Made by a program: the position numbers and the translations under genes. A DNA stretch of 64,000 bases from an uncultured bacterium (GTDB taxonomy: Bacteria; Omnitrophota; Omnitrophia; Omnitrophales; Aquincolibacteriaceae): assembly GCA_964508905.1 (NCBI GenBank), contig CAZDVO010000004.1, forward strand, positions 11,956 through 75,955, given 5' to 3'. The notes below the pieces were generated by a model. It was not told where the DNA came from, searched no databases, and saw nothing but the letters and a program-made list of their open reading frames with translations. How positions within the stretch are numbered: the first letter of the stretch is position 1; the number at the start of each line of letters is the position of its first letter. This document shows positions 987-63,296 of this stretch, one piece after another.

Positions 987-997
987 AACATTTTCCT

Positions 998-11737: not shown

Positions 11738-11825
11738 GAAAGCCCCCTTTAAAAGGAAAAAAGAACCGATGGCGTCCTCACGGCCACCACCGGTTCAAGA
11801 TCACGAACAAACAAAGAACGCGAGT

Positions 11826-12215: not shown

Positions 12216-12228
12216 TGGTTGTTAAATC

Positions 12229-32515: not shown

Positions 32516-32534
32516 CCCTGTGTTGTCATGGTGA

Positions 32535-33554: not shown

Positions 33555-33557
33555 AGA

Positions 33558-34166: not shown

Positions 34167-34175
34167 CTCTTCTTG

Positions 34176-34205
34176 TCAGAAAAAATATATACTTTTTCTG
34201 ACAGC
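34176..34205. promoter_or_regulatory. Near-perfect 30-bp palindrome just upstream of the abiEi start (candidate autoregulatory operator)
   Basis: TGTCAGAAAAAATATATACTTTTTCTGACA ends 10 nt upstream of the abiEi start codon. Confidence 0.45.
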
Positions 34206-34639
34206 ATGTCCAGGCATTTTTCCTCATTTTTCCGCTATCCGATGCAAATCAAATCCCCGCCGTCACAGAACCGGCGGGGATTTGTAGAGGAGAGTCAGGA
34301 TCTCGATAATCGGTCGGGTATACGAGTCCCAAAGTTCATCCAAAAGTCTTTAGGAGAACTTTTTTCATTTTGAGGGTTTTCCGTGATTAATGAGCGGCGA
34401 AATTTTGGATATAAAAACAACGCTCAAAAACTGAATTTAGGGACCTATTACGTTCGAAGTTCCTAATCGTGCGGTAATCGCGAAATCTGCCGAGCCCAGA
34501 AAACCATCTGCCGATCATCTGACGTTTCCGGAGCATTAAACGATTAGGGAAAATCACTTAACGATTCCCCAGCGAATTTGTTTGCCTATATTTCGTGACA
34601 TTTTTCGTGATGTTTTCATGCTTTCGTGCTACGAGCCTC

Positions 34640-36154
34640 TCATCTTCCCTTTTTCAGCTTTTGAAGCCGGTTAATCCCCTTCTTTGTTAACCGATATTTT
34701 TGCAATCGGCTGTTCGGCTTGTCGGGACTCGTGTACTTAACGTATTTTTCATCCAGCAATCCGCGTATAACTTTGTTCAATTGACCCGAAATGCCCTTTT
34801 GGCCTAGTCCCGCAGAAATGCTGGATTTACTCGAGATCTTGTTCTCCAAAAGAAGTAATACCCGGTCATCAAGCAACTCTGGCTGTGACTCTAGCCGTGA
34901 CTCTGGCTGTAACTCTGGCCGCGCCCTTGCCATTTTTGAGGCGCTTTTTCGCCACACCGTCAGGATAAAGAAGCCGCTCTCTAAACGGAACTCCGGCGCT
35001 TTCAGCCCGGCCTTCCGGCAATTGTCGAAGATATCAACAGTGCCGGTACCGGCTTTTTCGATATATTTCGTCAGGAAAAGAGGCTCTGCGATGAGTGGGT
35101 TCCCGGGCTGTGACGAATGCGGCTTGGACAGCCCGGCGATCGTAAGCGATGGAGGCAATGTCCCGGGATTCCAGATTTCAAGACGGTCCGCAAAAAGCAT
35201 GATCTCAACACTGGCATTGCTTGTGTAATCACGATGCGCCACCGCGTTGACGATACCTTCAGCCACAACCTCTTGGGGGATATCATACTCGACAGGCGCT
35301 TGCGGCCCCTTAGCACGAGTCCCCACAAAACGGTTGAGTTTCGACATCACAAAGTCAACGGCCTGATCGACCATCTCGAAGACCGTCCCCCGGTATATCT
35401 GATACGAAGCTATCGGCTTGAGTTTCTGCAGGCCATGAAAGTGCATGCACTTGACTTCGGAAGAAATAAGGAAACGCTGGGGCTTCTTACCGAATAAAAG
35501 TATCCCCGCATGGTTCGGCTTGTCTTTATCCAACAGATCCAGATGCGCCAGAACATCCATGACCGGCGTTCTCTCATCCAAAGCGAAGTCGCGCGCGTTC
35601 TTGGCACGTGTGAGAAACCAGCGGATCTTTTCCTCTGAAATATCCGACTTTGCGGAACCTCTGGAGGCCGTGGCGTCAAAAGGTCCTGTCATAATCCTGC
35701 CTGTCTCCAAAAGATGGCTTACGAGACTGGCATATACCGCAGCATTCAATTCCGGCAACGAATTAAAACGGCGTCGGATCAACTGATCCCCTGCCGTTTT
35801 CAACAACTCAAGCATTTTGGGATGACGATCCGCATCGCTTTCGCCCTTAACAAAAATCAACCGGCATTTACCGAGTTTAGACGCCAACAGGAACTCTTCA
35901 TGCGTCGGAGACCGTCCTTCCCGGTTCTCTTTGCCGTAATCGTCGCCGAATAGCCCGAGATAAATATCGCTCGCGCCGACTTCCTTCAAATAAACCTCAT
36001 CAGCCCGGCGATCACAAGCCGGAAGGTCTTCGAACAGAAAAATATCGAAAAACCTTCCCAACAGAGGATCGCCGGATATGTAATCCTTTAATCCCCTGCG
36101 CGCGTCCTTGAATTCCTTCTGAACGCTACTGATGAATATCTTGCGCTTGGTCAT
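34640..36154 (-). CDS. DUF4062 - AlbA_2 (Schlafen-like) - HATPase_c_4 - wHTH protein (paralog 1)
   Basis: The N-terminus 'KIFISSVQKEFKDARRGLKDYI...DIYLGLFGDDYG' is DUF4062-like. The middle 'VAEGIVNAVAHRDYTSNASVEIMLFADRLEIWNPGTLP' is the RecG-C/HATPase_c_4 signature; the C-terminus has a wHTH. The ATG at 36154 carries the SD GGGGAAGG; the ORF track starts at GTG 36172. Confidence 0.75.
   Translation of the reverse strand: MTKRKIFISSVQKEFKDARRGLKDYISGDPLLGRFFDIFLFEDLPACDRRADEVYLKEVGASDIYLGLFGDDYGKENREGRSPTHEEFLLASKLGKCRLIFVKGESDADRHPKMLELLKTAGDQLIRRRFNSLPELNAAVYASLVSHLLETGRIMTGPFDATASRGSAKSDISEEKIRWFLTRAKNARDFALDERTPVMDVLAHLDLLDKDKPNHAGILLFGKKPQRFLISSEVKCMHFHGLQKLKPIASYQIYRGTVFEMVDQAVDFVMSKLNRFVGTRAKGPQAPVEYDIPQEVVAEGIVNAVAHRDYTSNASVEIMLFADRLEIWNPGTLPPSLTIAGLSKPHSSQPGNPLIAEPLFLTKYIEKAGTGTVDIFDNCRKAGLKAPEFRLESGFFILTVWRKSASKMARARPELQPESRLESQPELLDDRVLLLLENKISSKSSISAGLGQKGISGQLNKVIRGLLDEKYVKYTSPDKPNSRLQKYRLTKKGINRLQKLKKGR
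34884..34931. repeat. In-frame 12-nt tandem repeat (x4) inside paralog 1 linker
   Basis: aactctggctgt / gactctagccgt / gactctggctgt / aactctggccgc; it encodes the PELQ/PESR/LESQ linker between the HATPase_c_4 and wHTH domains. Confidence 0.7.
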
Positions 36155-36172
36155 TTTGCCTTCCCCTGCCAC

Positions 36173-36395: not shown

Positions 36396-39300
36396 TTACG
36401 CGGCAATAGCAACAATGAAGTTGTTATCGTAGGTTCGCTGTAGAGCGTCCAGAAGGCTTTCTTCCACGGTCCAGAAACCGCCCTCTTGTCTTACCTCCGG
36501 CATGCGGATGTCTTCCCCTCCTGAAATGGCCCAAAGAAGCGCCATTGCGAGCGAGCCGCTCTTGTCACTATTCATTTTGAAAAATGACACTCGCTTACGC
36601 AGGCTACCGATCGACGTCCGCGAAGGCAGGACTTGTTTTGATAAATGAACGGTGGGGACATGAAATCTTGAAAAAACGTTTACTGCTTGATCAAGATTAC
36701 GCTCCGTTCTCGTAACGCGTTCAAGCTTAAGGAGCGCTGCCAGCTCTTCATCATGAACTTGCCCGTTTTCGTTATAAACAATGATGCGCGTTTCCGATCT
36801 TGAAAGCGCCACGAACAGATATTCCTGCTTCTGCGCTTCCGACAAACTCCCCCAATCCTCCGCATCCAAAAATACCGTCACCGGTTGCGTATTTCGACGA
36901 ACATTCTGAATGATTTGATCGCTTGGACCGGTGCTCACTCCGGGGATTGTCTCCATGCGCGTCTCGCTCCGCTCCCTAGGAACCCTGTTAGGGGAGCGAT
37001 TCGAAGGCACACGTTTTGGAGACCCGTTAAAACCGATCGCAACAGATTCTATGGCGGATTCGTGCTGTCCCGGAGAAGTTCTCAACGCGCGAGCTTTAGA
37101 GCGAGTTTCCCGGGCAGCTGATGCTGCAGGAATATTCCGGAGCTGTTCGGCTTCGCGGTCGGGATACTGCGCTAGAAATTCGTCACGCCACTTAATCACG
37201 TCATGCTCAGTAGGCGTCCAAAGACTCCGATACCAAGTCTTATCCTCCGGATAGTAATCCCGATGCAGGGGGTGAACTTTTTTGCCGGACAATAAAAATT
37301 GGACGCGCCTCACAAGAACCTGGACCAGCGCATAAAGCCGGTAGATCAAAGCCTCCACGCCCCTAGCCTGGCGCTTCAGATTTTTCGGTAAATAAGAGTC
37401 GTCCTTCGCGACAAGAAGCTTCCACTGTTTTTTTTCCGGCAAATACGCCACGACGTTGATACCGACATTCTGGGAGAAATCCGCAAAACCTCGCACCGCC
37501 GTATATTTTTTGACGGAAATTTGTCCAAAGGCCATCAATAGCGCAAGGATGGATCCGCCATGCGCTCCAATAGCTACGGTTTTTCCCTTAATTGAAGGGC
37601 TGTTTAATAAATCCTGAGAGAATTCCCGAAGGTCGCCCATCATTCCGGCCAATGAATCCAACTGCAAGGTGGTAACGGCTTCTGGGTATCGTTCGAAAAA
37701 ATTTTCTGGGTCAAAAATCACTTTGGCCATTTTGCCCGGAACACCTGCGACAGGGAATATACTGGTTTCAGCCAAACGAGAATCGACCGGCATGACACCC
37801 TGGCGCCCGCGACGCTTCCATAAGGGATACAGGGTTTGGTATGCCCTTTCCGAATCGCTGGATACAAAAATATCGAACGGAATTTTTGCGAGAAATTTAT
37901 CCAGGGCCTGGGCCTGTTTCTTTCCGCGAAAAGTTCCGGGGGAGAAACCATAACGTGTTTGCGTGACCTTCGTCAAATTTGAAATCGACTCTTGATGACG
38001 GATCGCATAGACCACAACCGCGTCAGGATGTGCTTCCCTCCAACCCGAATGCCAAAAATCCAGAACACTTCCATATTCCGGCGTCAGAAACGCCTTTTGT
38101 TCGGGGGTTAACTCACGATGAGGTTCCAGAGAAGTTGCCAAATCGCGCATTTCGGATCGGGGTTTTACTGCCGGCTCTTGCCCAGCAACGTCAGGCGTAT
38201 CCGCCGCCGCGCGGTCGGGCTCGGCCCCCTTCATCGCCGCTCCATCGCCCGGCGGGTTGTCTGTAGCTGTTTTTGCCTTGATAATTTTGAAAGCCGCGTC
38301 GACTTCTTCTAACAATAACGGCATCTCCTTCCCATTGAACATATCGACTATCTCACGACTAGTTATTTCTCTGCCCCTGTTTTGTTTAGTCACTTCAAGC
38401 CATTGATTAAAAATAAAGAGATCTTTGTCCGGGGAATTTATTGATAACTGTTTTATCAAAACAGGTAGCCCGATAATAAAGCCACGGTATCTATCACTGT
38501 CAAAACGAGGGTTACCTCGAATGATCTTTCTGTTTTCCGGAAGTTTCCCCATAATAGAATCTTGAACAAGTTCCGGCAAAATCATTAAAATATCCCCATT
38601 CCGAATACCAGACAACGCATCGCGAATGGCCATTGCTGAGGCGCCTTCATAATTCATGCCTCTTAAAAGCGTCTCTTGAAATAAATTTTCCTTTCTCGAA
38701 CTCTCCGCCGCGTTAACCTCTTCGGGAAGCAATTCGCTATCATGCGGCTCGCGCTCACTAAATAAAACATTGATAAAAACATTGTTAGTTTCTAAGAAGG
38801 CCTTATGCTTCCTCAAAAGTTCGGAAAACTTTAAAAGAGTATCAGGTTCTGGTTTCCCGTCTTTTATCTTCGCCCTATACTGATGCGTTCGCTCCCATAA
38901 TTCATAATCAGGCGCGAAATAATGCCTATGATCTGATCCTCCCAGATTGAAAGCGTAGAACCTTCCATTTTTTCTGCCCACGTTCAACTTAATCAGATCA
39001 ATAAAATCTGACTCTCCATCCGTAGAAGTCCCCTTTCCTATATCGCTGTATTCAAAGATATCCTTCACATAGCCCGTCATAAGAGCGATAAACTCAGCCA
39101 CAATATCATGCCTCTCTTCAATGGTCCTTCCGATGGCACCCTTCCTGTCATCCGCCCCCTGAACGCGAATAACCCCTATATCGGCCTTGCTTTGTACCAT
39201 GGCACGAAACATAGCCTCAATATGCCCGAAATGCAATGGATTGGCGGCTATAGAATAATAAAGCATTTTTGCATCCCCTGAATCCTCATCCGAACTAGTC

Positions 39301-42300
39301 AGTACGGGCGAACGATCATTGATCCGCACTCGAACATGCCGAGTTTCGCCATTGAGCCGCAACACAGCCATATTCCAAATTTGTAATTTTAAACGTCGGG
39401 CGATCAGCTCTGCTTGGGCTCTTTGAAATGAACTACGCGGCTGCCTTATCATGTCTGAGATCGCCTGATTAAGGCCAACAAAATCCCCTCCTATGAGTGC
39501 CTTTAATTTTTCCGGTCGGTAAATGCTCCTAGCATATTCAAACTCCTGATAAACCTTTTCATCCGCTGACCCACGATATAAAGCATGAATAAATGCCCTC
39601 GTGAGAGAAGCTTTGTCTTTCGATCGTTTCAAGCGTTTGAGGAACGAGGTTTCCATGTAGATCTTGCTGACGCCATTTTCCCTTACCCTTGCGATTCCGA
39701 AAGTAATTTTATCAGTCTCGATCAAATAGACCTTACTGTCTTCCTTAATTCCTAAAAAATCCTTTGCCACATTCAATTCTCTGTCAAATTCCACGGTCGG
39801 CCTTTCGGATCTTCTGGCCGCAGCCAGATTTTTCCTGAGCTCAAACAAGGACATTCTTTCATAGTAGCCATGATCAGCTAAGCGAACATTACGGTTTGCC
39901 AGCATTTCCAGAACATCCCGCATTAGACTGCGGCTATAAAACTCAATATTATCTGATCGATAAACAACCTCATGCTGATCTTCATTAAGGCGAATTGTCA
40001 GAATCGAGCTCTTCCCTGACGGGCCAATGAAATAGATCTCCCATCGATCACCCTGTCTTTGGGCCTTCTCAAAGCGCAGATCAACCCGTTTAGCGATCTC
40101 TTGCCCCAGCAATGCGGGAAATTCATCTTTGTTCTGAAGAACAACAAGATGGTCAAAAGAATCTAGATCAAAAGAAGAAATTTTCTTTTCAAGAGCACCC
40201 GGCGCCGGATCTCCTTTGTCAGACCCTTTGATAACTTTCACTACAGGCGCAAATTCAGCTCCTAGCTTGGAGAATTTCTCGTCTATTCCATCCGCTATCG
40301 CTTCGGATATCTTTCTATAAACCCATGGATCAGTTTCATCTAAATAGCCGGCCACTTCGAAGCCGCGCTCATGAAGACCGTACGATGTCGCCCCATCATC
40401 CACCGTTGTTACCAAAACCCCGTTGGGCAGTATCATTAAATATTTATAGGTCTTTTCTTCCTGCAGGGTCTTGTTCATTCGAAGGACCTGATCCGCAGTA
40501 AAAGAGCTATCTTCGCGAGCAAGGTACGCACGCACTCTTTCCCGCATCAGTTGAACAGCCTCATCATGAAGAAGGGCAAATTCATCGTAGGTTATCCCCA
40601 GAGATTTCTTGAGTTCATTCGGGAAACTTTTGAGCGGCTGAAATATATTGCATTTCCATATGGGAGGCCGTATCGACGGGTAGTGTTGTTTTGTTTTATT
40701 AAAAACATCCAAAATAATACCTTCAACATAAGGCAGGAGATCCGTCTTGACCTTATCAATGTTTTCTCTCGTAACCGTGGTGGTTATCACGATTTCTATA
40801 TCTTTATCCCTCTGAGCAGCGATTGTCTTGATGCTGGCTATTACTTCCGGCCATAACAAAGGGATTTCCCCTCTGAATGAATGCGGGTCGACCGTATCCA
40901 AAGAAAAACAAAACTGATCGACATAACTGATAAATTTTTCTAAAGGAACAAGATGCGTGCTCTTCCGGTCTTCTTTATAAAGCTCAATAAAGATCTCGCC
41001 CCCGACCTTTTTAAATTGCAGGCCGTTCGTGTTAACAAAAACCTTCATTCCTTTAGATTTTACATAAGCAATAATTTCATCAAACCGAGGGACTATAGTC
41101 GGTTCGCCGCCGCTAAAGGATATGCCTTCAATGCCTGTCTCAGCCAAAAGGTTAATGGTATGCAATATTTCTTTAAAAGACGGCTCCTTTGTCCCGTATT
41201 TAGCGATCTCTTTCTGTGAATAAAAATTTCTTGCCCAGCATTGCCGGCATTTTAATTGACACCGCAGCGAAGGAAGAAAGTCTATAAGTGAAGCGAATGT
41301 CCCTTCCCGGAAAGGGACTGCTCCCTCGGGGATACTCTTGTGTTGCCGGGCTAATAATACAGCTTGAGGCTTTGCTGCTTCCCGCATCTCGGAGCGGGCG
41401 GTTGTATTTTCCGGATTCTCTTTTTCCGCCGCAACTTTTGCTTTCAGGCGTCTGACCCGCTCGTCTATTCTCTCGATCTCCGCATCGTAGTACTCCCGGA
41501 CCTTATGATGCCTGGCCGCTTCTTTCTGGGATCTCAAGATATTTTTAACACCTTCCATGTCGATCTCATAATCCCGGAGCGCGTGCTCCCGGTCGTCCCT
41601 CCACGCCGCCTCGACCTTTCGATCGATCTTTTCTTCCTCCCCTCGTCTTTCAAAAGTTCGTTTCAGATACTCATGGTCAGCATCATGCGAAAGAGCCACC
41701 ACCTCTTCCGTGCTCAGGTCGAAGATCAATTCAGGGTTGTTACCAAAAACTTCAGGATGGGCTTTTGCGGTCTCGATCATGAGAGGATGCATCTTTTTCT
41801 GATAGCGGGTAATCAGCTGATGGGCATCCTCCATGAAAGAAAATTGTTGGACGTTGAGGGAGACAATCTTCCTGAGCGTTGGATAGCTTCCCAGGATAGT
41901 CATGAATTTCTCCTGATTTTTTTCTTCCTTAGCTTTCTCACCTCGGAGGTACTGTATCGTTTGGGATATTTCATCATCCAGCGCCTCCATGCTGACCGAA
42001 GGCTTCTCGCCGGCATTCGACATCCTGATCCTCGTAAAAAGTCGCAACGCGAGAAAAAGTTTCAGATCCAATATTCGGATCTTTTCACGAATGGTTTTTT
42101 CCGACTTAAGTTTCCAGACATCAACGGGTTCCCCATTCTTATCGCAAAGTCTTTCGATCAGCCGCAAAAGCTGGGGGGCCGCAATCGTTTCCGCTAAGTC
42201 CGAATCGGAAGCAAGGTTTGCTTGAAACTCATGCAGAAATGACACTTCATCATCACCTTTCCGGATATCTTCATCAGAAGCTTTGTAGTTATGCATATAA

Positions 42301-45300
42301 TCCGCCAGCGCCTGATAAACATCTCCCGTCCTCCGGGCGCGGGCATCTCTGACCCTTGTTTCGATGGCGCCAAGCGCTCCTTCTTCAAAAAGTTTCATGA
42401 CAGCCGCATCTTCCCGGATCATCTCCTCAATGGCGGCTACTTCTTTTACCTTATCCCAATGGGTCAACTTTTTCATCCAATGCTGTTCTGTTTCAGGCGT
42501 TAACTGAAGCGCCGCTCTCTCCAAACCGGCACGACTCATTGACAATTCGAATGCGTTAAAAAACCGCGCCTGCGGATACCAGAATTTATCCTGAAAAGTC
42601 GCGTGAAATGGTCGCGCAATGTGCATCCAAGCCAGCAATTCCACTAACCATGCCGTAGCCTGTTGCATCTGGCCACCACTTAAAAGCCCGCTGTCGGGAA
42701 GCCCACTAAAGAAGGCGTCTGCCTCCATGAACCGCTCAACACGCTTCTTGAGGACCGAATCGTAATCAACCAATTCCCGCCGATACAGCGGATTCTGAAG
42801 TCCGCTAGGTTCATTAATAAGCAACGAGTAAATGATCCTGTCCTTAAATTTTCGAGGCATGGTTTTGAATTCGTTTGTTTTGAATAAATTATTGAGCATT
42901 TCGGCGTATTTTTCAAAAGCCCGGTAATAATAATCCAGTTCAAAATAACCAAACTCTGTCTTGGGGCGCCCCCTCCACTCGCCTTCAAAATCCGGCATGT
43001 AGTTCTCTTTACCACCCTCCCTATAGAACCCTTCGAAATCTCCGTCGCTAAGCCAGACATCCCTCGGCTTAGGCGCGGGCTTAGCCAAAAGCTCCGCCGC
43101 TTGTTTCCACATTTTAAGTTCAATGCGAACTGTTTTGACCTTAACCGCGGGAGGCATTCCGTCATCCCGATAGTAGATGGTCCTTGTCCCGGAATCGAGT
43201 ACGACGGACTGATCGTCAAATTTCTTCAGGTCTTCGACCGCATTTTTAGAACCGACAACACATGCCTTATCCCGCTCACGAGCCGTTACCGCCGCATGAC
43301 TGGTCGTATTTCCGTTCTCCGTGATAACTCCCGCCATTCTGAAAAAAGCATTGTCCCAGCTGTTATCCGTCTCCTGGGTCACGAGAATATCTCCGGCCTT
43401 GATCTTCCGCGCGATTCTTTGGCTTTCGGCACGCTTCTGATTCTCTGGCAGATCCATACGAACCGGCCTTACTCTCAAAACACCGATCGCGACGCTCGGG
43501 AAACCGACAACAGCATCTCCAGGTAAAGTCATTTTTTTTACGGTGCTATCCATATCGCTCTCATCCACTGTCTTGATCTCAATAAAGCCAGCCTTGCTAA
43601 TGGTCGTTTCAGGCCGTGTCTGGACAACATGGATGACCCCCGATTTATCTTGCGCGAATTCAATATCCACGTTGGCGACATCCTTCATGGAGTTATATTT
43701 ACTCCGAATCCTCTGGGATATCTTCGCCAAACGCATAACAGCTTCCATCTCCAGAGAAGGCATCATTTGTTCATGCGGATCCGTGATCTTAACTCTCACA
43801 GTGCCATGCTCTCCCGTTATGATCTTCTCCGTCTTTGGCTGAGGCTGCTCCTCAAGAATGGTTTGCGCGTCAGGACTAATTGTCCACTCATCCGCCAAAC
43901 CAGACCCTGACACCACGCCTTCACCCAGTCCGGGCTTGGCATTGATCCTGAAAGCAGGTCGACCGGTCGTGGTATCCACGGAAAAAACATTGCCAGCCGA
44001 CTTAGCATCCACCATTTTTAATATCACAACCGGCATCATGGGAGTTTCTGTCATCTGATTCAAGATCCTGTAATTCACGAAACCACTATTAAAAAGACTG
44101 GCCCACACCTGAATAACAGCTCTGCTAACCTGCTTCGTATTATTCCTAGCCAGGACGCTATCTGCTTTTCCTGCACAAGCTGCCTTTGAGGAATCTTCAA
44201 CGCTAGCCGAACTCCTAACGGCAACACTGACCTCGGTCGCATCGCCTTGAAGGGATCCCATCATTTTCGAGATATCTTCCAAGAGTGGTTTGGGCAATCT
44301 GACCAACCACCGGATCCCAGTTCGGATCATCCAAGCCTCTATTTGAATTTCTCCTTGGAGAAACAAATCCAGGAACCAAAAGCGGGCTCCCGCAATAAGC
44401 TTTCTCCAGGCGGACAGTTCATTTTCCATCGCCTTGGCTTCCTTTGCCTTGCGATCCCTCAGAACTATCAGCTTCAAAGATAAAATTCGTAATCGTTCGA
44501 TCAGTGCTCCCAAAAACGGATTCCTTAAAACAACTTTTTTAAATACCTCAGCGCGAAGGATATAACCTTCCGGGACCCTCACAGGGTCAGAGACATTGTC
44601 CCGAGCTTCTTCAGCGGCAAGCATTCGCAGATAATGAAGATTGGCTCCCTTCCCTCCGGATACCGATTTATTGCCGCTGTCAGGATGGTCCAGATGGACC
44701 AAAGACTGACCAATCTCGAGGGGGAGATGTTCTGATACTGAAATATTCCGAACAACTTGCCTGGAAACAGTTTCGTAAATAGCATCGCTAATACTGGGTT
44801 GTAAATTCTCTTTTGCAGAAGATTCCGCTGAGAAAGGAACTGAAAGATCGCTGGCCAAAGCTGCGCCTTCTTCTCGTAGCTTGTAAAAAACATCCCACCA
44901 CAGCCTGAATCCATAGGCATCCGCGTTCAGGTTCTTCAATTCGTCCTCGGTCATAGGCATTTTTTCCCTATCGGCGAGTTTTCTCGGCTCTCTGAACTTG
45001 TCTGCCACCTTTTGATCTTCTAAAGCATTCAGGAAATAAGTGAATAAAGTGCCGGTTTCGAAGATTTCGGCCGGAGGTAATAATGGTACTGATGTTGCCT
45101 GTGCGGCTTCTTGTGCCAAACTGGCAAGCGCCTCACGTAGAGCTGTATCATTTTTTGTAACATAAATGACAAGCGCATGTTTTACAGGATCGTAATCCAG
45201 AACCAGCTCTTTACTGACAAGATCCTTTTGCTTTTCATAAAAAGAGCTCAGCTTACCGGCCTCATTCGTGTTCAAAGCCTGAAAGGTATAACTTTGAATG

Positions 45301-48300
45301 TAGCGGCTTTGTTCACCGGGTTTCCCGATCCTCTTCAGTCGTGACGCATCAGAACCGATCTCGAGATAATCTTTAAGAACCTGCTGAGCAGAATTTGTAA
45401 TGTTTGTGTCCGGTGCGATTTCACTACCTAAAGCTACTGAAAATTTGGAGGGAAATAAATCGCTGTAAGGCCCTTGTTTTTTAACTAAAACCCGTCCCTT
45501 GGTATCAAAGACCATCACTTGGACGCTTTGTCTTAAACCTTTTGCTTGTTGCCGCCTTCCATGGAGATTGATCAAATGACGCAATTGTGAGATCGCAAAA
45601 TAGGTCGAAAGGAAGTGAGGGTCGGGTTCCCCGACAATGTTCCCGTTATTCAAGATTGTGATGTCTTTTTCAATGACATTGAGCAAACCTTCCGCATCCT
45701 CATAACGGGCTTTAGCAACCATCTCCCTGACCGCGACGACTCTGTCGGGAAGTCCGGCCAGCAGACAACTGATAGCATGCGCCTGCCTCAGCATCGCAAG
45801 GACCTCGGCCGACCCGAAATAAACCGCCGTCAAATCCTCCGCATACTTCGCATGATCCGTGGAAAACATATCCGCAACGGCATCAATGGTTAGGAATTTC
45901 TTGGCATCAGAATCGATCAGCTTCAAAACACCTGAAGTGAGTGAATTCACTGAATTTTCTGCTGTTCTCCGCTGAGCTTCGTGAGATTTTACCTTCGTTT
46001 TAACCGCTTTCGCCTCGGCCTCGGTCAGAGGATAGACCAAAAGCGTGCTCTTTTCGTAAGTCACCGCGGTTAACAAAGATGGTATATGAGTTTCACTACC
46101 GATCGCCAGGACTAACCTGTCTTGATCCGCAGCAAGTTCAGCGCTGTCCTTTAGAATATAAACAGTGAGGGAGTGTTTCGTTTCTTCATCAAAATCCAGG
46201 GTGATACCCTGAGCTCCAGCCGATACTTTGTGTATTTCAAAAGCTTTCTTAAGAGATTCGGCTTCGCTCTGGTTAAAAGCCGGAAAAACATAGCTTCGCA
46301 TATAGTGCAAATGGGTATCTTCGCCGCCGACCCGCAGGATTCGCTTTGGATCCGCCTCGATTCCTATCTCCTGCCGGATTGAGGCCTTCACTTTTTCTTC
46401 AACCGCCGCGACATCAGCTCCCGCAGATGGTTTGGCATTGGCGGACACGGAATATTTGGAAGCAAAGAGTTGTTTATAAGGACCGCGCTTCTGGAGAAGA
46501 ATCTTGCCTTGGGGATCGACCGCCAGAATCTGAACACTTTGTTTCTGCGCAACATTATCGGAAATCACTTTTTTCTTAGCGACTTTCTCAAGCAACAGTT
46601 TTGCCGAAAAGTAATTCGCCAAGAGATATTTATCGACCTTGCTATAAGACCATTTCTGGACTAGCTTCCCGAGCGCTTCAACAAGAGGCTCCAACTTCCT
46701 CGCCGCCGCGGTGAAATCCATTTTCGAAAGCAGTTCTCGCGCCTCAACCAGCCCTTCATAAAGCTCTAAGGTATTCCGATCCTCTTGGGTGCTTTCAGCT
46801 TCCCGCATCTCGGAGCGAAGTTGGGCATTTCTATCCACTGTGTGCGCAGGTTGCATTGCTTGCTGAAGATCAACAAGACGACGCTCGATCAGTTGAGGGT
46901 CAGAGTTACCCGCGTCAACAGAAGAAGCAATCGCATGAAGTTTTGCACGCACAAATTCTTCGTTGCCGGTAGCGGCTAAGTAGGGGTAGCCCGGTGCTCG
47001 GTTGGCACGGGTAACAAGGAACGGGGCTTCGAAGGGGTGCAGTCCATCAGACATCAATCGTTTGTAATAATCCTGGTGACGCTTATCAATAGCCGTGATC
47101 TTGGGAGAAATGACTACATAAGAAAAACCCTGCTGCCTAAACATGTCCTTGATAGCGCTGGCGTGAAATCCCCCAAAAACCAGTATGGCGGCTTCCTCCT
47201 TGCCCTCCTGAAAGGCTCTGATGTGCTGATCGATCGCCCCATCCCGCTTCTGCGCCACATTGTAGAACCGAACCGCTTCCTTGATGTGCCGCTCCCACTC
47301 TTTGGAAAGAACTAGCGACCGGCGAGTCAGAGACACAATGAAATCCACTAATTTCTGCGTCTCAAGTTTTTCAAGCGCGTCTTTGGCCGCTTCATATTCC
47401 GATTGCGTGAGTTGGATCTGGTTGAGCCGTTTGAGCAAGCTCAAACCCTGATAATAATCAAAGATCTTTTTGTCCCGGTCATTTTGAAGGAAGGTCTTTG
47501 AAAGTCCCTGCTCCAGACGGCTCGCCTCTTCAAAAATAACGCGGGAATCCAGAGCGTTCAATTGCCCGATCAGCTTTTGGTCCCGGGTGGTTTCAGCGGC
47601 AAGAAGGATCGTAAGGGCGGGATATTCCCGGAAAAAGGAATCCGGATCCGCGACATTCTTCCGGTATAACGCTCGCAATGCTTTGAGATAATCGAGAAGG
47701 GGCCGTTCCCCTTTTGAGTATCCTTCCCGGAAGCGAAGCCAGGATTTCAGTTCCTTCGGAAAATACCGGTTGGCGAGGATCAGGATGTGCTTAAGAAGCT
47801 CATCAAGATCCGCTTCAGTGTCCTTCCGCTTCCTTGAAGAATCCCGATAAGCCTCGATATTTTTTGAATAGAGATCAAGATTTTCAACCCCGATCAGCTC
47901 AAAATCCTGTTCCCGGTTAATGTGCGCGTATTCCGCGCCTCCGATCCTCAATTTGTCCAAAAGAAAATAAGAGACCTTTTGTTTAATCTCGGGATCTTTG
48001 ATGAATCCAAAAAATTTTTCCGTGGGAACAGGGCCCTCATAGCCTTCCTCAAAAACGGTCTTGATCCCCTTTTCTTTTACGAAATTACCGATAAGCTTCG
48101 CGATGTTCTCCTGGGCTTCAAGAGAGTCGTGAGCATCCTGAATAAAAAGAATGGTCTTGCCGGAAGCTCCTTGAAAAGATTCTTCGATTTTTCCAAGTCC
48201 GGGAGGGACCGCGATCATGCCATTAAGGACTTGAGCGGTCGAAACGGAGACCGGATCACCTCCCGGAACATTGGAATTTTGCGCCTGCCGACCGGCGGGC

Positions 48301-48422
48301 ATAGCAAAACTGGTTGGTGTGGGAATAAGAATCTGCGTAGCGACAAAGGAAAGGACGATGAAAGACGCAATGGTCTTTAGAGAAAGTGAGGGCCCAGATG
48401 TTGCTTTTCGGAACAACTTCAT
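36396..48422 (-). CDS. Giant 4008-aa multidomain protein with signal peptide/TM, PEP-utilizing ATP-grasp plus phospho-His module, tandem Nudix-like repeats, radical-SAM core, HxGH nucleotidyltransferase and histidine-phosphatase domains
   Basis: A single uninterrupted 12,027-nt ORF. N-terminal hydrophobic segment 'TIASFIVLSFVATQILIP'. 'SVSGGKGANLHYL' (aa ~1253) and 'GNTTSHAAVTARERDKACVVG' (aa ~1704) are the PPDK/PEP-synthase ATP-grasp and mobile-His motifs. 'CQLKCRQC...SFSGGEPT' (aa ~2388-2441) is the radical-SAM CxxxCxxC plus GGE motif. 'ANPLHFGHIEAM' (aa ~3060) is a (H/T)xGH nucleotidyltransferase motif. 'YAIRHQES...GAHGGSIL' (aa ~3473-3625) are the RHG/HGG histidine-phosphatase motifs. Two ~130-aa internal repeats start 'SVQILAVDPQGKILLQKRGPYKQLFASKYSV' and 'SVQVMVFDTKGRVLVKKQGPYSDLFPSKFSV'. 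Confidence 0.85.
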   Translation of the reverse strand: MKLFRKATSGPSLSLKTIASFIVLSFVATQILIPTPTSFAMPAGRQAQNSNVPGGDPVSVSTAQVLNGMIAVPPGLGKIEESFQGASGKTILFIQDAHDSLEAQENIAKLIGNFVKEKGIKTVFEEGYEGPVPTEKFFGFIKDPEIKQKVSYFLLDKLRIGGAEYAHINREQDFELIGVENLDLYSKNIEAYRDSSRKRKDTEADLDELLKHILILANRYFPKELKSWLRFREGYSKGERPLLDYLKALRALYRKNVADPDSFFREYPALTILLAAETTRDQKLIGQLNALDSRVIFEEASRLEQGLSKTFLQNDRDKKIFDYYQGLSLLKRLNQIQLTQSEYEAAKDALEKLETQKLVDFIVSLTRRSLVLSKEWERHIKEAVRFYNVAQKRDGAIDQHIRAFQEGKEEAAILVFGGFHASAIKDMFRQQGFSYVVISPKITAIDKRHQDYYKRLMSDGLHPFEAPFLVTRANRAPGYPYLAATGNEEFVRAKLHAIASSVDAGNSDPQLIERRLVDLQQAMQPAHTVDRNAQLRSEMREAESTQEDRNTLELYEGLVEARELLSKMDFTAAARKLEPLVEALGKLVQKWSYSKVDKYLLANYFSAKLLLEKVAKKKVISDNVAQKQSVQILAVDPQGKILLQKRGPYKQLFASKYSVSANAKPSAGADVAAVEEKVKASIRQEIGIEADPKRILRVGGEDTHLHYMRSYVFPAFNQSEAESLKKAFEIHKVSAGAQGITLDFDEETKHSLTVYILKDSAELAADQDRLVLAIGSETHIPSLLTAVTYEKSTLLVYPLTEAEAKAVKTKVKSHEAQRRTAENSVNSLTSGVLKLIDSDAKKFLTIDAVADMFSTDHAKYAEDLTAVYFGSAEVLAMLRQAHAISCLLAGLPDRVVAVREMVAKARYEDAEGLLNVIEKDITILNNGNIVGEPDPHFLSTYFAISQLRHLINLHGRRQQAKGLRQSVQVMVFDTKGRVLVKKQGPYSDLFPSKFSVALGSEIAPDTNITNSAQQVLKDYLEIGSDASRLKRIGKPGEQSRYIQSYTFQALNTNEAGKLSSFYEKQKDLVSKELVLDYDPVKHALVIYVTKNDTALREALASLAQEAAQATSVPLLPPAEIFETGTLFTYFLNALEDQKVADKFREPRKLADREKMPMTEDELKNLNADAYGFRLWWDVFYKLREEGAALASDLSVPFSAESSAKENLQPSISDAIYETVSRQVVRNISVSEHLPLEIGQSLVHLDHPDSGNKSVSGGKGANLHYLRMLAAEEARDNVSDPVRVPEGYILRAEVFKKVVLRNPFLGALIERLRILSLKLIVLRDRKAKEAKAMENELSAWRKLIAGARFWFLDLFLQGEIQIEAWMIRTGIRWLVRLPKPLLEDISKMMGSLQGDATEVSVAVRSSASVEDSSKAACAGKADSVLARNNTKQVSRAVIQVWASLFNSGFVNYRILNQMTETPMMPVVILKMVDAKSAGNVFSVDTTTGRPAFRINAKPGLGEGVVSGSGLADEWTISPDAQTILEEQPQPKTEKIITGEHGTVRVKITDPHEQMMPSLEMEAVMRLAKISQRIRSKYNSMKDVANVDIEFAQDKSGVIHVVQTRPETTISKAGFIEIKTVDESDMDSTVKKMTLPGDAVVGFPSVAIGVLRVRPVRMDLPENQKRAESQRIARKIKAGDILVTQETDNSWDNAFFRMAGVITENGNTTSHAAVTARERDKACVVGSKNAVEDLKKFDDQSVVLDSGTRTIYYRDDGMPPAVKVKTVRIELKMWKQAAELLAKPAPKPRDVWLSDGDFEGFYREGGKENYMPDFEGEWRGRPKTEFGYFELDYYYRAFEKYAEMLNNLFKTNEFKTMPRKFKDRIIYSLLINEPSGLQNPLYRRELVDYDSVLKKRVERFMEADAFFSGLPDSGLLSGGQMQQATAWLVELLAWMHIARPFHATFQDKFWYPQARFFNAFELSMSRAGLERAALQLTPETEQHWMKKLTHWDKVKEVAAIEEMIREDAAVMKLFEEGALGAIETRVRDARARRTGDVYQALADYMHNYKASDEDIRKGDDEVSFLHEFQANLASDSDLAETIAAPQLLRLIERLCDKNGEPVDVWKLKSEKTIREKIRILDLKLFLALRLFTRIRMSNAGEKPSVSMEALDDEISQTIQYLRGEKAKEEKNQEKFMTILGSYPTLRKIVSLNVQQFSFMEDAHQLITRYQKKMHPLMIETAKAHPEVFGNNPELIFDLSTEEVVALSHDADHEYLKRTFERRGEEEKIDRKVEAAWRDDREHALRDYEIDMEGVKNILRSQKEAARHHKVREYYDAEIERIDERVRRLKAKVAAEKENPENTTARSEMREAAKPQAVLLARQHKSIPEGAVPFREGTFASLIDFLPSLRCQLKCRQCWARNFYSQKEIAKYGTKEPSFKEILHTINLLAETGIEGISFSGGEPTIVPRFDEIIAYVKSKGMKVFVNTNGLQFKKVGGEIFIELYKEDRKSTHLVPLEKFISYVDQFCFSLDTVDPHSFRGEIPLLWPEVIASIKTIAAQRDKDIEIVITTTVTRENIDKVKTDLLPYVEGIILDVFNKTKQHYPSIRPPIWKCNIFQPLKSFPNELKKSLGITYDEFALLHDEAVQLMRERVRAYLAREDSSFTADQVLRMNKTLQEEKTYKYLMILPNGVLVTTVDDGATSYGLHERGFEVAGYLDETDPWVYRKISEAIADGIDEKFSKLGAEFAPVVKVIKGSDKGDPAPGALEKKISSFDLDSFDHLVVLQNKDEFPALLGQEIAKRVDLRFEKAQRQGDRWEIYFIGPSGKSSILTIRLNEDQHEVVYRSDNIEFYSRSLMRDVLEMLANRNVRLADHGYYERMSLFELRKNLAAARRSERPTVEFDRELNVAKDFLGIKEDSKVYLIETDKITFGIARVRENGVSKIYMETSFLKRLKRSKDKASLTRAFIHALYRGSADEKVYQEFEYARSIYRPEKLKALIGGDFVGLNQAISDMIRQPRSSFQRAQAELIARRLKLQIWNMAVLRLNGETRHVRVRINDRSPVLTSSDEDSGDAKMLYYSIAANPLHFGHIEAMFRAMVQSKADIGVIRVQGADDRKGAIGRTIEERHDIVAEFIALMTGYVKDIFEYSDIGKGTSTDGESDFIDLIKLNVGRKNGRFYAFNLGGSDHRHYFAPDYELWERTHQYRAKIKDGKPEPDTLLKFSELLRKHKAFLETNNVFINVLFSEREPHDSELLPEEVNAAESSRKENLFQETLLRGMNYEGASAMAIRDALSGIRNGDILMILPELVQDSIMGKLPENRKIIRGNPRFDSDRYRGFIIGLPVLIKQLSINSPDKDLFIFNQWLEVTKQNRGREITSREIVDMFNGKEMPLLLEEVDAAFKIIKAKTATDNPPGDGAAMKGAEPDRAAADTPDVAGQEPAVKPRSEMRDLATSLEPHRELTPEQKAFLTPEYGSVLDFWHSGWREAHPDAVVVYAIRHQESISNLTKVTQTRYGFSPGTFRGKKQAQALDKFLAKIPFDIFVSSDSERAYQTLYPLWKRRGRQGVMPVDSRLAETSIFPVAGVPGKMAKVIFDPENFFERYPEAVTTLQLDSLAGMMGDLREFSQDLLNSPSIKGKTVAIGAHGGSILALLMAFGQISVKKYTAVRGFADFSQNVGINVVAYLPEKKQWKLLVAKDDSYLPKNLKRQARGVEALIYRLYALVQVLVRRVQFLLSGKKVHPLHRDYYPEDKTWYRSLWTPTEHDVIKWRDEFLAQYPDREAEQLRNIPAASAARETRSKARALRTSPGQHESAIESVAIGFNGSPKRVPSNRSPNRVPRERSETRMETIPGVSTGPSDQIIQNVRRNTQPVTVFLDAEDWGSLSEAQKQEYLFVALSRSETRIIVYNENGQVHDEELAALLKLERVTRTERNLDQAVNVFSRFHVPTVHLSKQVLPSRTSIGSLRKRVSFFKMNSDKSGSLAMALLWAISGGEDIRMPEVRQEGGFWTVEESLLDALQRTYDNNFIVAIAA

Positions 48423-48615
48423 TGGCTCAAGTCCTTTTCTTCATTGAAGTTGTGAAAAATGTAACACCTATATTTCCATGAGTCAAATTGGCGGATATGC
48501 CAATTGAGTTATACAGGTGGGATGTTATAAATTGACAGCTTATGCAAATCTCAAAAAATTAAATTTTACCCGGAGATAAAAAAAGGTGGTTGCGGGATAA
48601 GAGAATCGAGATCGT

Positions 48616-50415
48616 TTAAAAGCCTACTTGCGGCTTTTTCGCTCTACAAAAGTACTTTTCCAAGCCTCGAAACAGGCGTTGTCCATAAAAGAACCATTTG
48701 TCATCCGAAGGTTTTAATAAACACGACTGGCTTTTCGATGCCCTTTTCGTCTGTTTTTCTTTTCCTTGCTGACAAGTTTCCCACCTCCTTTCCGACAAGA
48801 CAACATTCCCCCTGGCTGCTAACGCTTTGTCATACATGCCCTGGAAGGGTTCGTAAAGCTCAAAACTTGCTATCTGCTGGTGATCGATCACGAGCTTCTT
48901 AAACACAAGCTTAAGCAGCTCTTTCCGCAAGGCCGGGTGCAGATTTTCCCGGAAAGAATCGGACGACCTTACAACATCCGCAGCCCTTTTAACATAGTCC
49001 TTCGACGCCTCCTTTTCGACAAGCTGAAGCTCCATCCGTTCGATCTTGATGCGGATCTCTCCTTCTTCGTTACGAAGCTTCTGGGCTTTGCCTTCAAAAA
49101 TGTCCTTGCCGATATTTCCGTCCAGATAGACATCCGTCAGCTTCCCGAGCTTCGCCGAACACCCCTGGAGTTCTTTCTTCAGCCTCTCAAGATCATGAGA
49201 AACTTCGCCCACCGCCTGTTCCCGGTAATGGTCCGTGATCAGGTTCCGCATTCTTTCTTTGCTGACCTCTCCGGAAGTGAAAAGGACTTCCAAAATCTCG
49301 GACACCTCGGCCTCCGGGATCTCGGCCCGCACGTCGTTATTCCCGCAATGAATGTTGCGTGTAGCGCGACCCGAGCAACGGTAATACGGCCTTTTCTCGT
49401 TCGTCTTGTGATTTTTCAAATTGGAGACGCCATTGTAGCGATAGCCGCATTTCGCGCAGGTCAGAATTCCCGACAGAACATAATCCCTTACCCGTTTGCG
49501 GTGAAAGCTGCCTCTCCGGTTCCGGTCGAGGATGTTTTGCGCGCGGGAGAAGACTTCCAACTCAATGACAGGCTGATGCAACCCGTCCGCCTCAATGACC
49601 TTGGAAGGATCATTTTTGACATAGCGGCAACCCCTCAGCGTCTTCTGCTTCCGGTCATAATGGTACGCGTTCCAGACCAGCTTGCCGGTGTAAAGCTTAT
49701 TGCGGAGGATCTTGCGAACTAGCGAGCTGTTAAAAGTCCCGCCGGAGCGGCTCAGGATCTTCTTCTGAAAAAAATCCCCGGCAATCTTCTGACAAGGCTC
49801 TCCCGCGATATATCTCTGGAATATCTCCCGCACAAGTTGCGCTTCTTCTTCAACGACAAGTAGCAGTTTGGCCGTCTTGTCATAAGAGTAGCCAAACGGG
49901 GCGTACCGCGAACCCTGCCAATGACCAGCCTGAACACCCCGGACCATTCCTGGGAACACCCGTTCAATGATCCGGTTGCGTTCAAACTCCGCAAAACTCC
50001 CTAATTGCTGAAGCATTAGCTTCCCCGAGCTTGTGGTCGTATCGTAAGGCTCGGTCGCTGATTTGAACTGGATCCCGAGTACGTCAAACTCATCCAGAAT
50101 ATTCAGAATATCCCGCAATCTACGGCTAAAACGGTCCAGCTTATAGACCAGTATCAGATCGAACTTCTTCGCCCTGGCATCTTCTAGCAGTTGATTCATA
50201 GCGGGCCGGTCAAGCGAATAGCCGCTGTAACCGTCATCCATGTAGATCGCGCCTTTGCCGTCAGCAAAACAGATCTCGAACCCTTCTCTTTTGGCGAAGT
50301 CCACAAGGTAGTCCTTCTGGACACCCAGCGAATACCCCTCGCGCGCCTGATCTTCGGTGCTGACCCGGATATAAAGCGCCGCTTTGATACGTCTTTTTTC
50401 TTCTGTCTTTTCCAT
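48616..50415 (-). CDS. Large serine recombinase (resolvase/invertase N-domain plus recombinase plus Zn-ribbon)
   Basis: 'AALYIRVSTEDQAREGYSLGVQ' holds the catalytic Ser region; 'YKLDRFSRR'; a C-terminal Cys cluster 'CAKCGYRYN...CSGR...HCG'; 599 aa. Confidence 0.9.
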   Translation of the reverse strand: MEKTEEKRRIKAALYIRVSTEDQAREGYSLGVQKDYLVDFAKREGFEICFADGKGAIYMDDGYSGYSLDRPAMNQLLEDARAKKFDLILVYKLDRFSRRLRDILNILDEFDVLGIQFKSATEPYDTTTSSGKLMLQQLGSFAEFERNRIIERVFPGMVRGVQAGHWQGSRYAPFGYSYDKTAKLLLVVEEEAQLVREIFQRYIAGEPCQKIAGDFFQKKILSRSGGTFNSSLVRKILRNKLYTGKLVWNAYHYDRKQKTLRGCRYVKNDPSKVIEADGLHQPVIELEVFSRAQNILDRNRRGSFHRKRVRDYVLSGILTCAKCGYRYNGVSNLKNHKTNEKRPYYRCSGRATRNIHCGNNDVRAEIPEAEVSEILEVLFTSGEVSKERMRNLITDHYREQAVGEVSHDLERLKKELQGCSAKLGKLTDVYLDGNIGKDIFEGKAQKLRNEEGEIRIKIERMELQLVEKEASKDYVKRAADVVRSSDSFRENLHPALRKELLKLVFKKLVIDHQQIASFELYEPFQGMYDKALAARGNVVLSERRWETCQQGKEKQTKRASKSQSCLLKPSDDKWFFYGQRLFRGLEKYFCRAKKPQVGF

Positions 50416-63278: not shown

Positions 63279-63296
63279 TTTGCCTTCCCCTGCCAC

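Follow-up and report, generated by a model that had tools for sequence, protein, structure and literature searches.

The giant gene analyzed here encodes a member of an Omnitrophota protein family whose plan is shared throughout: a Sec-type signal, a head of about 470 amino acids, variable cassettes delimited by the pentapeptide RSExR, and a tail of about 186 amino acids. The gene lies on the minus strand of a 64,000-nucleotide stretch (the window) of contig CAZDVO010000004.1 (GenBank assembly GCA_964508905.1, positions 11,956 to 75,955), from an uncultured bacterium of the phylum Omnitrophota, and its product has 4008 amino acids (Table 1). We hypothesize that this product is an exported modular polyprotein that is cut at RSExR and serves the delivery of several enzymes, a reading to which we give a little less than even odds (about 45%). 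An earlier, sequence-only reading of the same DNA matched the architecture to no described protein family; the protein is no orphan and follows a strict plan found in thousands of proteins.

Table 1. Features of the giant gene and of its surroundings, in window coordinates (aa, residues of the 4008-residue protein; a slash marks a predicted cut)
Feature	Residues (aa)	Position	Strand	Basis or remark
Whole gene, head-cassette-tail protein, ATG start	1-4008	36396..48422	minus	ORF list and translation; recorded also as P0001, on a 76-kb NCBI contig
Sec-type signal peptide: basic n-region MKLFRK, hydrophobic core aa 15-37, AxA-like site SFA/MP	1-40	48303..48422	minus	Kyte-Doolittle hydropathy and family N-terminus layout; cleavage inferred
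Conserved head: predicted TIKI / erythromycin-esterase / ChaN-fold hydrolase domain with large helical insertion	60-535	46818..48245	minus	Invariant D96-x-H98, E125/E126, E164, H167, R170, H420, H449
RSEMR site 1, head/cassette 1 boundary	536-540	46803..46817	minus	Motif
Cassette 1: two Nudix-like repeats, PEP-synthase-type phosphotransferase, helical domain of ~590 aa	541-2342	41397..46802	minus	RSEMR on both sides
Nudix-like repeat 1, degenerate Nudix box	597-880	45783..46634	minus	Repeat pair E 1e-27; NCBIfam Nud_hyd_Meth 3.6e-6, partial
Nudix-like repeat 2, Nudix box lost	934-1215	44778..45623	minus	NCBIfam YfcD 5.5e-5; PDB IDI-2 0.064-0.089, YfcD 0.14
PPDK_N ATP-grasp nucleotide-binding domain, GGKGANL at 1256	1256-1611	43590..44657	minus	Pfam PF01326 E 1.3e-50
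Phospho-histidine swivel domain (PEP-utilizers), TSHAA at 1707	1675-1744	43191..43400	minus	Pfam PF00391 E 1.9e-16
Helical domain in place of PEP-binding TIM barrel	1750-2342	41397..43175	minus	Homologous to last cassette part in P0002, P0010, P0011
RSEMR site 2, cassette 1/2 boundary	2343-2347	41382..41396	minus	Motif
Cassette 2: radical-SAM enzyme, unassigned region, HxGH-motif region	2348-3421	38160..41381	minus	Bounded by RSEMR sites
Radical-SAM core with possible twitch/SPASM-like extension; CxxxCxxC 2388-2395 (CQLKCRQC), GGE 2438	2380-2653	40464..41285	minus	Pfam PF04055 E 3.3e-11, Fer4_12 E 1e-5
Possible nucleotidyltransferase, unconfirmed; HFGH 3064, TIEER, SAMAIR 3262	3040-3300	38523..39305	minus	Motifs only
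RSEMR site 3, cassette 2/3 boundary	3422-3426	38145..38159	minus	Motif; His-phosphatase cassettes in P0037 (twice), P0060, P0003 start there too
Cassette 3: branch-1 histidine phosphatase, Pfam match aa 3471-3670; RHQE 3475, HGG 3621	3427-3817	36972..38144	minus	Pfam PF00300 E 1.4e-13
RSETR site 4, cassette 3/tail boundary	3818-3822	36957..36971	minus	P0003 tail homology starts exactly there
Conserved tail: Rossmann-like (HAD-like) alpha/beta domain, end ...AIAA	3823-4008	36399..36956	minus	Homology at C terminus
Conserved upstream region, L003 homology ending at about 48715		48423..48715	.	80% nt identity over 405 nt
Large serine recombinase, flanking insertion		48616..50415	minus	Pfam Resolvase, Recombinase, Zn_ribbon_recom
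Inserted defense-type genes PRiA4_ORF3, AbiEii, AbiEi, DUF4062-HATPase_c_4-Fic_C, between giant gene and MiaB		31823..36172	minus	Pfam and PADLOC

Conserved ends and variable cassettes

Homology search retrieved 220 proteins, nearly all of 2200 to 6900 aa and from Omnitrophota metagenome bins, and what they share lies at the two ends. Residues of about 1 to 540 are common to all relatives compared (119/119), residues of about 3800 to 4008 recur in about 32 of them at the BLAST level, and there is almost nothing in between. Transitive clustering groups the C-terminal 200 residues of 107/120 proteins into one family, whose members have -AA (65) or -SA (42) at the very end. The head is always N-terminal among the relatives and the tail always at the exact C terminus. 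Their Pfam content is highly variable (epimerases, HD, HAD, ROK, kinases, methyltransferases, radical SAM, Nudix, PPDK_N, and more). The protein in the window has every part of the plan, namely, signal and head, RSExR at the module boundaries, and a Rossmann-like C-terminal tail.

A profile of the head matched 8342 of 1.84 billion cluster representatives at an E-value of ≤1e-3 and 2938 at ≤1e-30, always N-terminally; the protein's own match has an E-value of 1e-200. A scan of one genome per GTDB species gave 164 head copies, and the named records among them were Omnitrophota or Omnitrophica, save for bins called "uncultured bacterium" and a single "uncultured Planctomycetales" bin. At least four to six copies are present in several of the genomes, and tandem arrays occur. 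The family is apparently restricted to Omnitrophota, which agrees with the guess at Omnitrophota in the sequence-only reading: all named relatives are Omnitrophota metagenome-assembled genomes. Four close relatives or fragments (P0193, P0194, P0079, and P0102) are labeled "Candidatus Bathyarchaeia archaeon" or "Verrucomicrobiae bacterium" in NCBI, and these contigs are probably mis-binned.

The gene is one open reading frame (ORF) of 4008 codons without an internal stop, as had been read from the DNA before, and all the motifs listed at that time are present in the translation. The start codon is consistent with the alignments of orthologues, which begin at residue 1. Might the gene be an artifact of assembly or annotation, that is, a chimeric join or a fusion of neighboring genes? 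The sequence is metagenome derived, and near 32 kb the GC content of the window drops from about 0.55 to about 0.47, which would fit such an origin. However, a 12-kb frame without stops cannot be due to chance, and the GC content is even (0.45 to 0.49) across the gene. We consider an artifact extremely improbable because the family-wide head and tail occupy the very ends of the protein, just as they do in >100 independent relatives, and because sequences from other assemblies (the relative P0002 and fragments P0191 to P0194) are collinear with the protein across internal junctions.

Alignments between relatives break at the motif. P0002 is collinear with cassette 1 (38% identity over 1469 aa) up to the motif, where the alignment stops in either protein. 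RSExR closes the PPDK-tail block of P0002, P0010, and P0011 and opens the histidine-phosphatase block of P0037 (two copies), P0060, and P0003; in P0048, a radical-SAM block comes after a motif. Judged by these boundaries, the cassettes are units of exchange. The relative P0003, whose gene occupies the same locus in another genome (L003; see below), is 70% identical to our protein in the head (aa 1-516) and 70% in the tail (aa 3818-4008), with tail homology starting at the motif; its cargo is unrelated except for a phosphatase cassette (26% identity), which is placed differently in the two proteins. Because head and tail at the same locus are this similar and the cargo is not, sequence comparison indicates that cargo turns over much faster than the flanking genes. 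The identities of head and tail co-vary across the relatives (Spearman 0.61). We hypothesize that the conserved ends double as recombination handles for cargo exchange. The previous suggestion of a conflict or effector protein is compatible with the cargo turnover.

Directly downstream of P0002 (L001 12300-19524) lies a gene for a protein of 11,388 aa, which combines a signal-like segment with a divergent head (AIQDAH...EGATGE...GPEY...GGFH) and carries a cluster of RSExR/RAExR motifs at aa 654-794. By these motifs, the divergent head ties the head-cassette-tail family to the much longer giants of the phylum.

The tail has no Pfam match (in tiles, at an E-value of ≤10) and is undetected by NCBIfam. 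An active HAD phosphatase was considered and rejected, as the motif I nucleophile Asp (DxD, at the end of strand 1) is not conserved in the tails. When the tail profile was used to look for homologues, short fragments from contig ends saturated the result, which was uninformative on stand-alone tails. Apolar -AA ends are recognized by tail-specific (S41) proteases and by ClpX, and one might speculate that the conserved -AA/-SA end is fit for a protease of the tail-specific type. A second RSETR (aa 3875-3879, 36786-36800) forms part of a predicted beta-strand in the tail (LSRSETRIIVY). Only close relatives have it too (as RAEAR in P0003), other tails having NKALH there, and it is probably not a functional site.

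The RSExR motif and the head

In 120 proteins with 461,283 aa, RSEMR occurs 153 times, against 0.23 times expected from composition. With one change allowed, the motif becomes R-S-E-[M/L/V/A/I/T]-R: RSELR occurs 224 times, RSEVR 149, RSEAR 90, RSEIR 43, and RSETR 38 (each against ≤1.3 expected), and RAEMR has 27 occurrences. The 690 RSExR sites amount to a median of five per protein with a median spacing of 372 aa; proteins have their first site at aa 544 (median) and their last one 180 to 230 aa short of the C terminus. The four sites of our protein coincide with the end of the head and with the starts of the radical-SAM part, the histidine-phosphatase part, and the tail. The GTDB scan gave the same picture at the head: 69 of 76 usable independent loci have a first RSExR site within 300 aa after the GGFH of the head (median, 100 aa). 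Six-frame translations of the window, L001, and L003 contain no RSExR outside the giant genes. Six occurrences were present in the upstream flanks of other loci, five of them in the tails of tandem upstream paralogues.

The residues around RSExR are not conserved and are poor in hydrophobic residues (0.27 to 0.28 versus 0.33; p about 1e-33 to 1e-45). In AlphaFold2 (AF2) models, those adjoining sites 1 and 4 are low-confidence ends, with a pLDDT of <50 just before site 1 in the head model. The codons of the motif vary synonymously and position 4 uses codons that are unable to start translation; hence, to judge from codon usage, RSExR is selected as a peptide. Two other explanations were rejected on these grounds. 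M, L, and V dominate position 4, which might have pointed to internal translation starts, but the codons include GTA, GTT, CTC, TTA, GCN, and ACG, and Ala and Thr are common; the synonymous variation speaks against a DNA-level recombination site. A repeat finder independently flagged the sequences coding for the RSEMR sites (38126-38159, 41363-41396, and 46784-46817). Two of these share 28 of 34 nt and both encode RSEMREA, a likeness that hints at a common origin, or at DNA-level exchange, for some junctions.

The AF2 model of the head (pLDDT 86.5, pTM 0.83) led us to assign a TIKI alpha/beta fold with a parallel beta-sheet core, which is split by a helical insertion of about 230 aa. An alignment of 23 heads has the invariant stretches Q-D-A-H-D-S (H98), E-E-G-x-E-G (E125/E126), A-E-Y-A-H-x-x-R (E164, H167, R170), and G-G-F-H (H420) as well as H449. 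In the model, D96-x-H98, E126 (exactly 28 residues past H98), and H420 each directly follow a beta-strand. From these sequence positions we assign to the head a TIKI-type set resembling 2His/2Glu (D96-A-H98, E126, H420), with Asp as the first acidic residue. The active enzymes of the superfamily share the 2His/2Glu set; its His-Glu pair is His-85/Glu-113 in BcR135 and His-3902/Glu-3930 in RRSP, a MARTX effector with a TIKI fold in which Glu-3900-x-His-3902 and His-4030 complete the set (PMC6254334). The spacing of H98 and E126 is that of BcR135 and RRSP.

The head thus resembles the TIKI superfamily (Tiki1/2, RRSP, the erythromycin esterases EreA-C, BcR135/136, ChaN, TraB/PrgY, HopBA1) in its parallel beta-sheet core and in the placement of two His, one just past the first strand and one following a later strand, and of a Glu that lies 28 residues beyond the first His, past the second strand. 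It differs from the superfamily models in the split by the helical insertion and in the Asp at the first acidic position, and no Pfam model (tiles of ~300 aa, E-value of ≤10) or NCBIfam model matched it, those of the TIKI superfamily included. PDB phmmer and profile searches with the head gave only spurious BAG-domain matches in the helical insert. On both sequence and model, we predict that the head has a TIKI-superfamily hydrolase fold and may act as a hydrolase (peptidase or esterase). PrgY/TraB and Tiki are membrane-anchored extracytoplasmic domains that act on peptides or proteins.

Cargo, export, and the function of the protein

Four families are above the Pfam gathering score in a whole-protein scan: PPDK_N, PEP-utilizers, Radical_SAM (aa 2385-2533), and His_Phos_1. 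The scan bears out three modules that had been proposed from motifs, the PEP-synthase/PPDK-like ATP-grasp with its swivel domain, a radical-SAM core with CxxxCxxC and GGE, and a branch-1 histidine phosphatase. The match to PF04055 reached 44.1 bits (gathering score, 29.5), with C2388/C2392/C2395 as the cluster cysteines, and that to PF00300 reached 51.4 bits (gathering score, 21.7) and covered the full profile.

Cassette 1 resembles the family of phosphoenolpyruvate (PEP) synthase, PPDK, and rifampin phosphotransferase in that an ATP-grasp precedes a swivel domain in PEP-synthase order, with the catalytic His in TSHAA. Unlike PEP synthase and PPDK, it has a helical domain of ~590 aa without known relatives instead of the C-terminal TIM barrel, is preceded by two degenerate Nudix-like domains, and scores far under all NCBIfam equivalog cutoffs; the NCBIfam PEP synthase model matched in its N-terminal half only (203 bits versus a cutoff of 598). 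The sequence-only reading had already noted the lack of an obvious PEP-binding barrel, and rightly so: PEP-utilizers_C (PF02896) had no match at an E-value of ≤1 in the whole-protein scan or in the tiles of ~300 aa. The helical domain has no Pfam or NCBIfam match, and neither the helical regions nor the HxGH region had a Pfam match in the tiles at an E-value of ≤10.

The two tandem repeats in front of the ATP-grasp are true internal paralogues (27% identity over 272 aa, E-value of 1e-27), and their Nudix box is degenerate, both as previously described; their assignment to Nudix is weakly to moderately supported. NCBIfam Nudix/IPP-isomerase models matched partially (N-terminal half of the domain) and below the cutoff (3.6e-6, 5.5e-5, and 4e-3), PDB profile matches to IDI-2, YfcD, and DR0079 were weak (E-value of 0.09 to 0.4), and Pfam gave no match with the whole protein or tiles. 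Of the Nudix box GX5EX7REUXEEXGU, repeat 1 retains only R-Q-E-I-G-I, and repeat 2 lacks the Arg and the Glu pair.

In cassette 2, the twitch-type NCBIfam model N_Twi_rSAM covers aa 2380-2653 (1e-9), and other radical-SAM subfamily models match the cluster-binding core only. We did not accept the HxGH-type nucleotidyltransferase proposed for the same cassette, since short motifs alone align. A nucleotidyltransferase of the PF01467 type had no Pfam, NCBIfam, or PDB-profile match; hhalign against E. coli PPAT and NadD (approximate reference sequences) aligned only H-x-G-H, T-x-E-E-R, and S-x-x-x-I-R, at ~1% probability, and an ad hoc hidden Markov model of four nucleotidyltransferases matched 15 residues (E-value of 0.23). 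A homologue search with aa 2650-3421 returned four close fragments only, none of which has Pfam labels; they come from independent assemblies, are 66 to 77% identical, and span the internal junctions of the cassette.

The N-terminal signal or transmembrane segment noted before proves to have the properties of an export signal, both in hydropathy and in family layout. Residues 15 to 37 are the sole segment with a Kyte-Doolittle hydropathy clearly above 1.6, and the N termini of the family have a basic n-region, a hydrophobic core, and an AxA-like site (SFA/, GYA/S, ALA/Q), the layout of a cleavable Sec signal peptide. Because of this layout, the whole cargo is predicted to leave the cytoplasm (N-in/C-out). 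A Tat signal would account for the export of a folded Fe-S enzyme; it was rejected, as only 1 of 116 N termini has an RR motif.

We hypothesize that the RSExR pentapeptides are processing sites in flexible linkers at each boundary, cut by the head itself or by a partner protease. The head is a plausible cutter because active members of the TIKI superfamily include site-specific endopeptidases (RRSP, Tiki). Processing of one exported precursor would release three enzymes, as well as head and tail, outside the cytoplasm. Omnitrophota are thought to be host dependent or predatory. The enzymes would probably work inside or at the surface of host or prey cells, which contain ATP and S-adenosylmethionine (SAM), much as MARTX effectors do; such a destination is suggested because cargo that depends on ATP, SAM, and Fe-S clusters could hardly work in the periplasm. 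The idea can be extended to the phylum as a whole, with thousands of polyproteins that cut themselves at RSExR by a TIKI-fold head and free recombined sets of ordinary metabolic enzymes of nucleotide, sugar, and cofactor chemistry into or onto host or prey cells; the conserved ends would serve trafficking as well as cassette exchange. We regard an effector-delivery platform of such a new type and on this scale as possible, if doubtful.

Several points weigh against a processed polyprotein. The TIKI superfamily also contains esterases and heme binders, and the head need not be a peptidase. Its Foldseek matches are weak (E-value of 0.02 to 0.09, TM below 0.2), and the first acidic residue of its catalytic set is Asp and not Glu. 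The link between head and RSExR is one of co-occurrence, and cleavage is inferred from sequence. Radical-SAM and ATP-grasp enzymes exported unfolded via Sec would have to gain Fe-S clusters and substrates outside the cytoplasm, which is hard to explain unless they reach another cell; the available text of a preprint on larger Omnitrophota giants raises the export of cofactor-dependent enzymes as a puzzle there too (10.64898/2026.06.07.730766). No translocation device was identified in the protein. A cluster resembling a type II secretion system (T2SS) or type IV pilus (4605-15116, minus strand), with a secretin, a PilM-like protein, T2SS F, T2SS E with MshEN, and a Laminin_G_3 protein, lies ~21 kb away from the gene; in the part of their work available to us, West-Roberts et al. 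describe clusters of this kind in the neighborhood of giant genes of Omnitrophota (10.1101/2023.11.21.568195).

The same parts could instead form an uncleaved multi-enzyme scaffold tethered to the envelope, with RSExR as a docking or recognition motif or as the signature of a structural linker. Larger multi-enzyme giants of the phylum are read as membrane associated in the accessible portion of one report (10.64898/2026.06.07.730766), cleavage is here a prediction, and the co-variation of head and tail identities would fit an interaction between the two. Yet an exact pentapeptide within variable, hydrophobic-poor flanks at every boundary is the classic signature of a processing site, the head keeps its full catalytic set, and cofactor-dependent enzymes of cytoplasmic type would be without substrates in the periplasm. 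We think such a scaffold rather unlikely, though it is the main rival of the processed polyprotein.

Improbable, in our opinion, is an assembly line or metabolon at the inner face of the membrane or in the cytoplasm that works on one nucleotide-derived substrate, with the N-terminal segment as a mere membrane anchor. The cargo has phosphate and nucleotide chemistry as its common theme, and the need for ATP, SAM, and Fe-S clusters fits the cytoplasm. Against this stand the basic n-region and AxA-like site, which predict N-in/C-out export, and the occurrence of the same head and tail with unrelated cassettes in any order (epimerases, HD, HAD, ROK, kinases, methyltransferases). The assembly-line enzyme considered in the sequence-only reading is unlikely for the same reasons.

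A polyprotein with processing sites would have parallels in known systems. Like MARTX toxins, our protein is giant and presumably secreted, and its variable array lies between conserved N- and C-terminal regions; MARTX effectors are released by proteolysis between them, and the TIKI fold of RRSP is that predicted for the head. Unlike in MARTX, the whole-protein Pfam scan found no glycine-rich repeats or cysteine protease domain, the signal is of Sec type and not type I, the cargo resembles metabolic enzymes and not known toxins, and the proposed cut site is a defined pentapeptide. There is no homology beyond the TIKI fold, and the resemblance, drawn by analogy, is one of logic and not of membership. 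Viral polyproteins have a protease domain and short conserved junction motifs between their units, as proposed here, and polymorphic toxins combine conserved trafficking parts with swiftly exchanged payloads, comparable to the cargo replacement at the syntenic locus. Unlike either of these, we deal with a cellular, chromosomal gene family that is conserved at both ends and variable in the middle, with ordinary metabolic enzymes as payloads. Unlike with polymorphic toxins, no immunity genes were seen adjoining the giant gene.

Giant ORFs have been reported in Omnitrophota (PMC10066038). In the available parts of two further reports (10.64898/2026.06.07.730766; 10.1101/2023.11.21.568195), the giants of this phylum resemble our protein in being tiled with PPDK_N, NUDIX, Radical_SAM, HAD, and methyltransferase domains and in having an N-terminal signal peptide or transmembrane segment; they are of at least 10,000 or at least 30,000 aa and are described by Pfam content and topology, whereas our protein has 4008 aa and one hydrophobic segment. 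The giant-protein domains given by West-Roberts et al. include PPDK_N, NUDIX, Radical_SAM, and HAD, and N-terminal regions are stated there to be generally without identifiable domains (10.1101/2023.11.21.568195, as far as available). Nielsen and Lui describe a class of "multi-enzyme metabolic clusters" at ≥10,000 aa, most with signal peptides or transmembrane helices (10.64898/2026.06.07.730766, available in part); the domain mix of this class 1 fits our protein, whose length is below the threshold of the catalogue. The sequence-only reading had called the enzymatic content of such genes largely unexplored, which holds in part, as multi-enzyme giants of at least 10,000 aa have been described (same two reports). 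The accessible text of PMC10066038, 10.1101/2023.11.21.568195, and 10.64898/2026.06.07.730766 makes no mention that we found of a shared head, a shared tail, or a recurrent pentapeptide, and open-access papers and preprints gave nothing relevant on RSEMR or an Omnitrophota polyprotein. A multi-enzyme giant gene in Omnitrophota is of a known kind; no description seems to exist as yet of the family's grammar (head, punctuation motif, tail, cassette exchange).

Giant genes fill a striking share of small Omnitrophota genomes, and published surveys list their domains without an organizing principle. The shared hydrolase-fold head, the tail, and the boundary pentapeptide provide a cleavage hypothesis and a simple rule by which these proteins can be divided into functional units. 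Should processing take place, the family would count among the few cellular polyprotein systems and make up a large, naturally shuffled library of exported enzymes, with a bearing on how host-dependent bacteria feed on or manipulate their hosts. A delivery platform would also explain how the Omnitrophota giants of more than 10,000 aa are built and used. Head and tail deserve family models of their own, as neither Pfam nor NCBIfam detects them.

The locus and its neighboring genes

Upstream of the giant gene are the serine recombinase and then ABC-2/HlyD/OEP efflux genes and a hybrid-cluster protein; downstream follow DUF4062-HATPase_c_4-Fic_C, AbiEi/AbiEii, and PRiA4_ORF3 and then MiaB, a polysaccharide deacetylase, and RNase T. 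At L003, the gene order is giant gene, a 108-aa ORF, MiaB, deacetylase, a small ORF, RNase T, and Dus; these downstream genes are 65 to 91% identical to window genes at 24 to 31.7 kb, and the defense genes are absent. Because this syntenic relative has the giant gene next to the MiaB locus without the recombinase and defense genes, synteny indicates that the giant gene is resident at a conserved locus and that recombinase and defense genes were inserted on either side later. The last 32 recombinase codons (48616-48715) overlap a stretch that L003 also has upstream of its giant gene (75% aa and 80% nt identity), which suggests an integration junction, perhaps an attachment site, ~300 bp upstream of the giant gene.

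The sequence-only reading placed the gene in a recombinase-bounded, defense-rich island. There is indeed one recombinase upstream, and AbiE and other defense-type genes lie downstream, but their presence is incidental, as they are absent at L003. An antiphage or other defense effector of a mobile island bounded by the recombinase would fit neighbors such as AbiEi/AbiEii, two Schlafen/HATPase_c_4-type proteins, and the large serine recombinase, and the radical-SAM core weakly matches prokaryotic viperin models. These matches are limited to positions 9-97 of 257-281 (~85 aa of generic cluster binding) and 42 bits against a cutoff of 180, too little for a prokaryotic viperin (pVip). Moreover, the gene adjoins the MiaB region without those neighbors at L003, PADLOC gave no further match, and an export signal is unusual for abortive-infection enzymes. 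We consider a role in defense very improbable.

The GC content drops from about 0.55 (1-32 kb) to 0.44-0.49 at ~32000-62000 and recovers at about 62 kb. This stretch spans the syntenic giant gene as well as the inserted genes, so that the insertions alone do not explain its low GC content. The sole tRNA gene in the window, tRNA-Val (GAC) at 4005-4080 (minus strand), is distant from the insertion junctions examined. Two paralogous DUF4062-HATPase_c_4-Fic_C genes (49% aa identity, with the first ~23 residues identical) have a 300-nt direct repeat (35934-36233 and 63058-63357, 76% identity) that takes in their 5' ends and upstream sequence, and its copies flank a 27-kb stretch with the giant gene, the recombinase, the efflux genes, and the hybrid-cluster protein.

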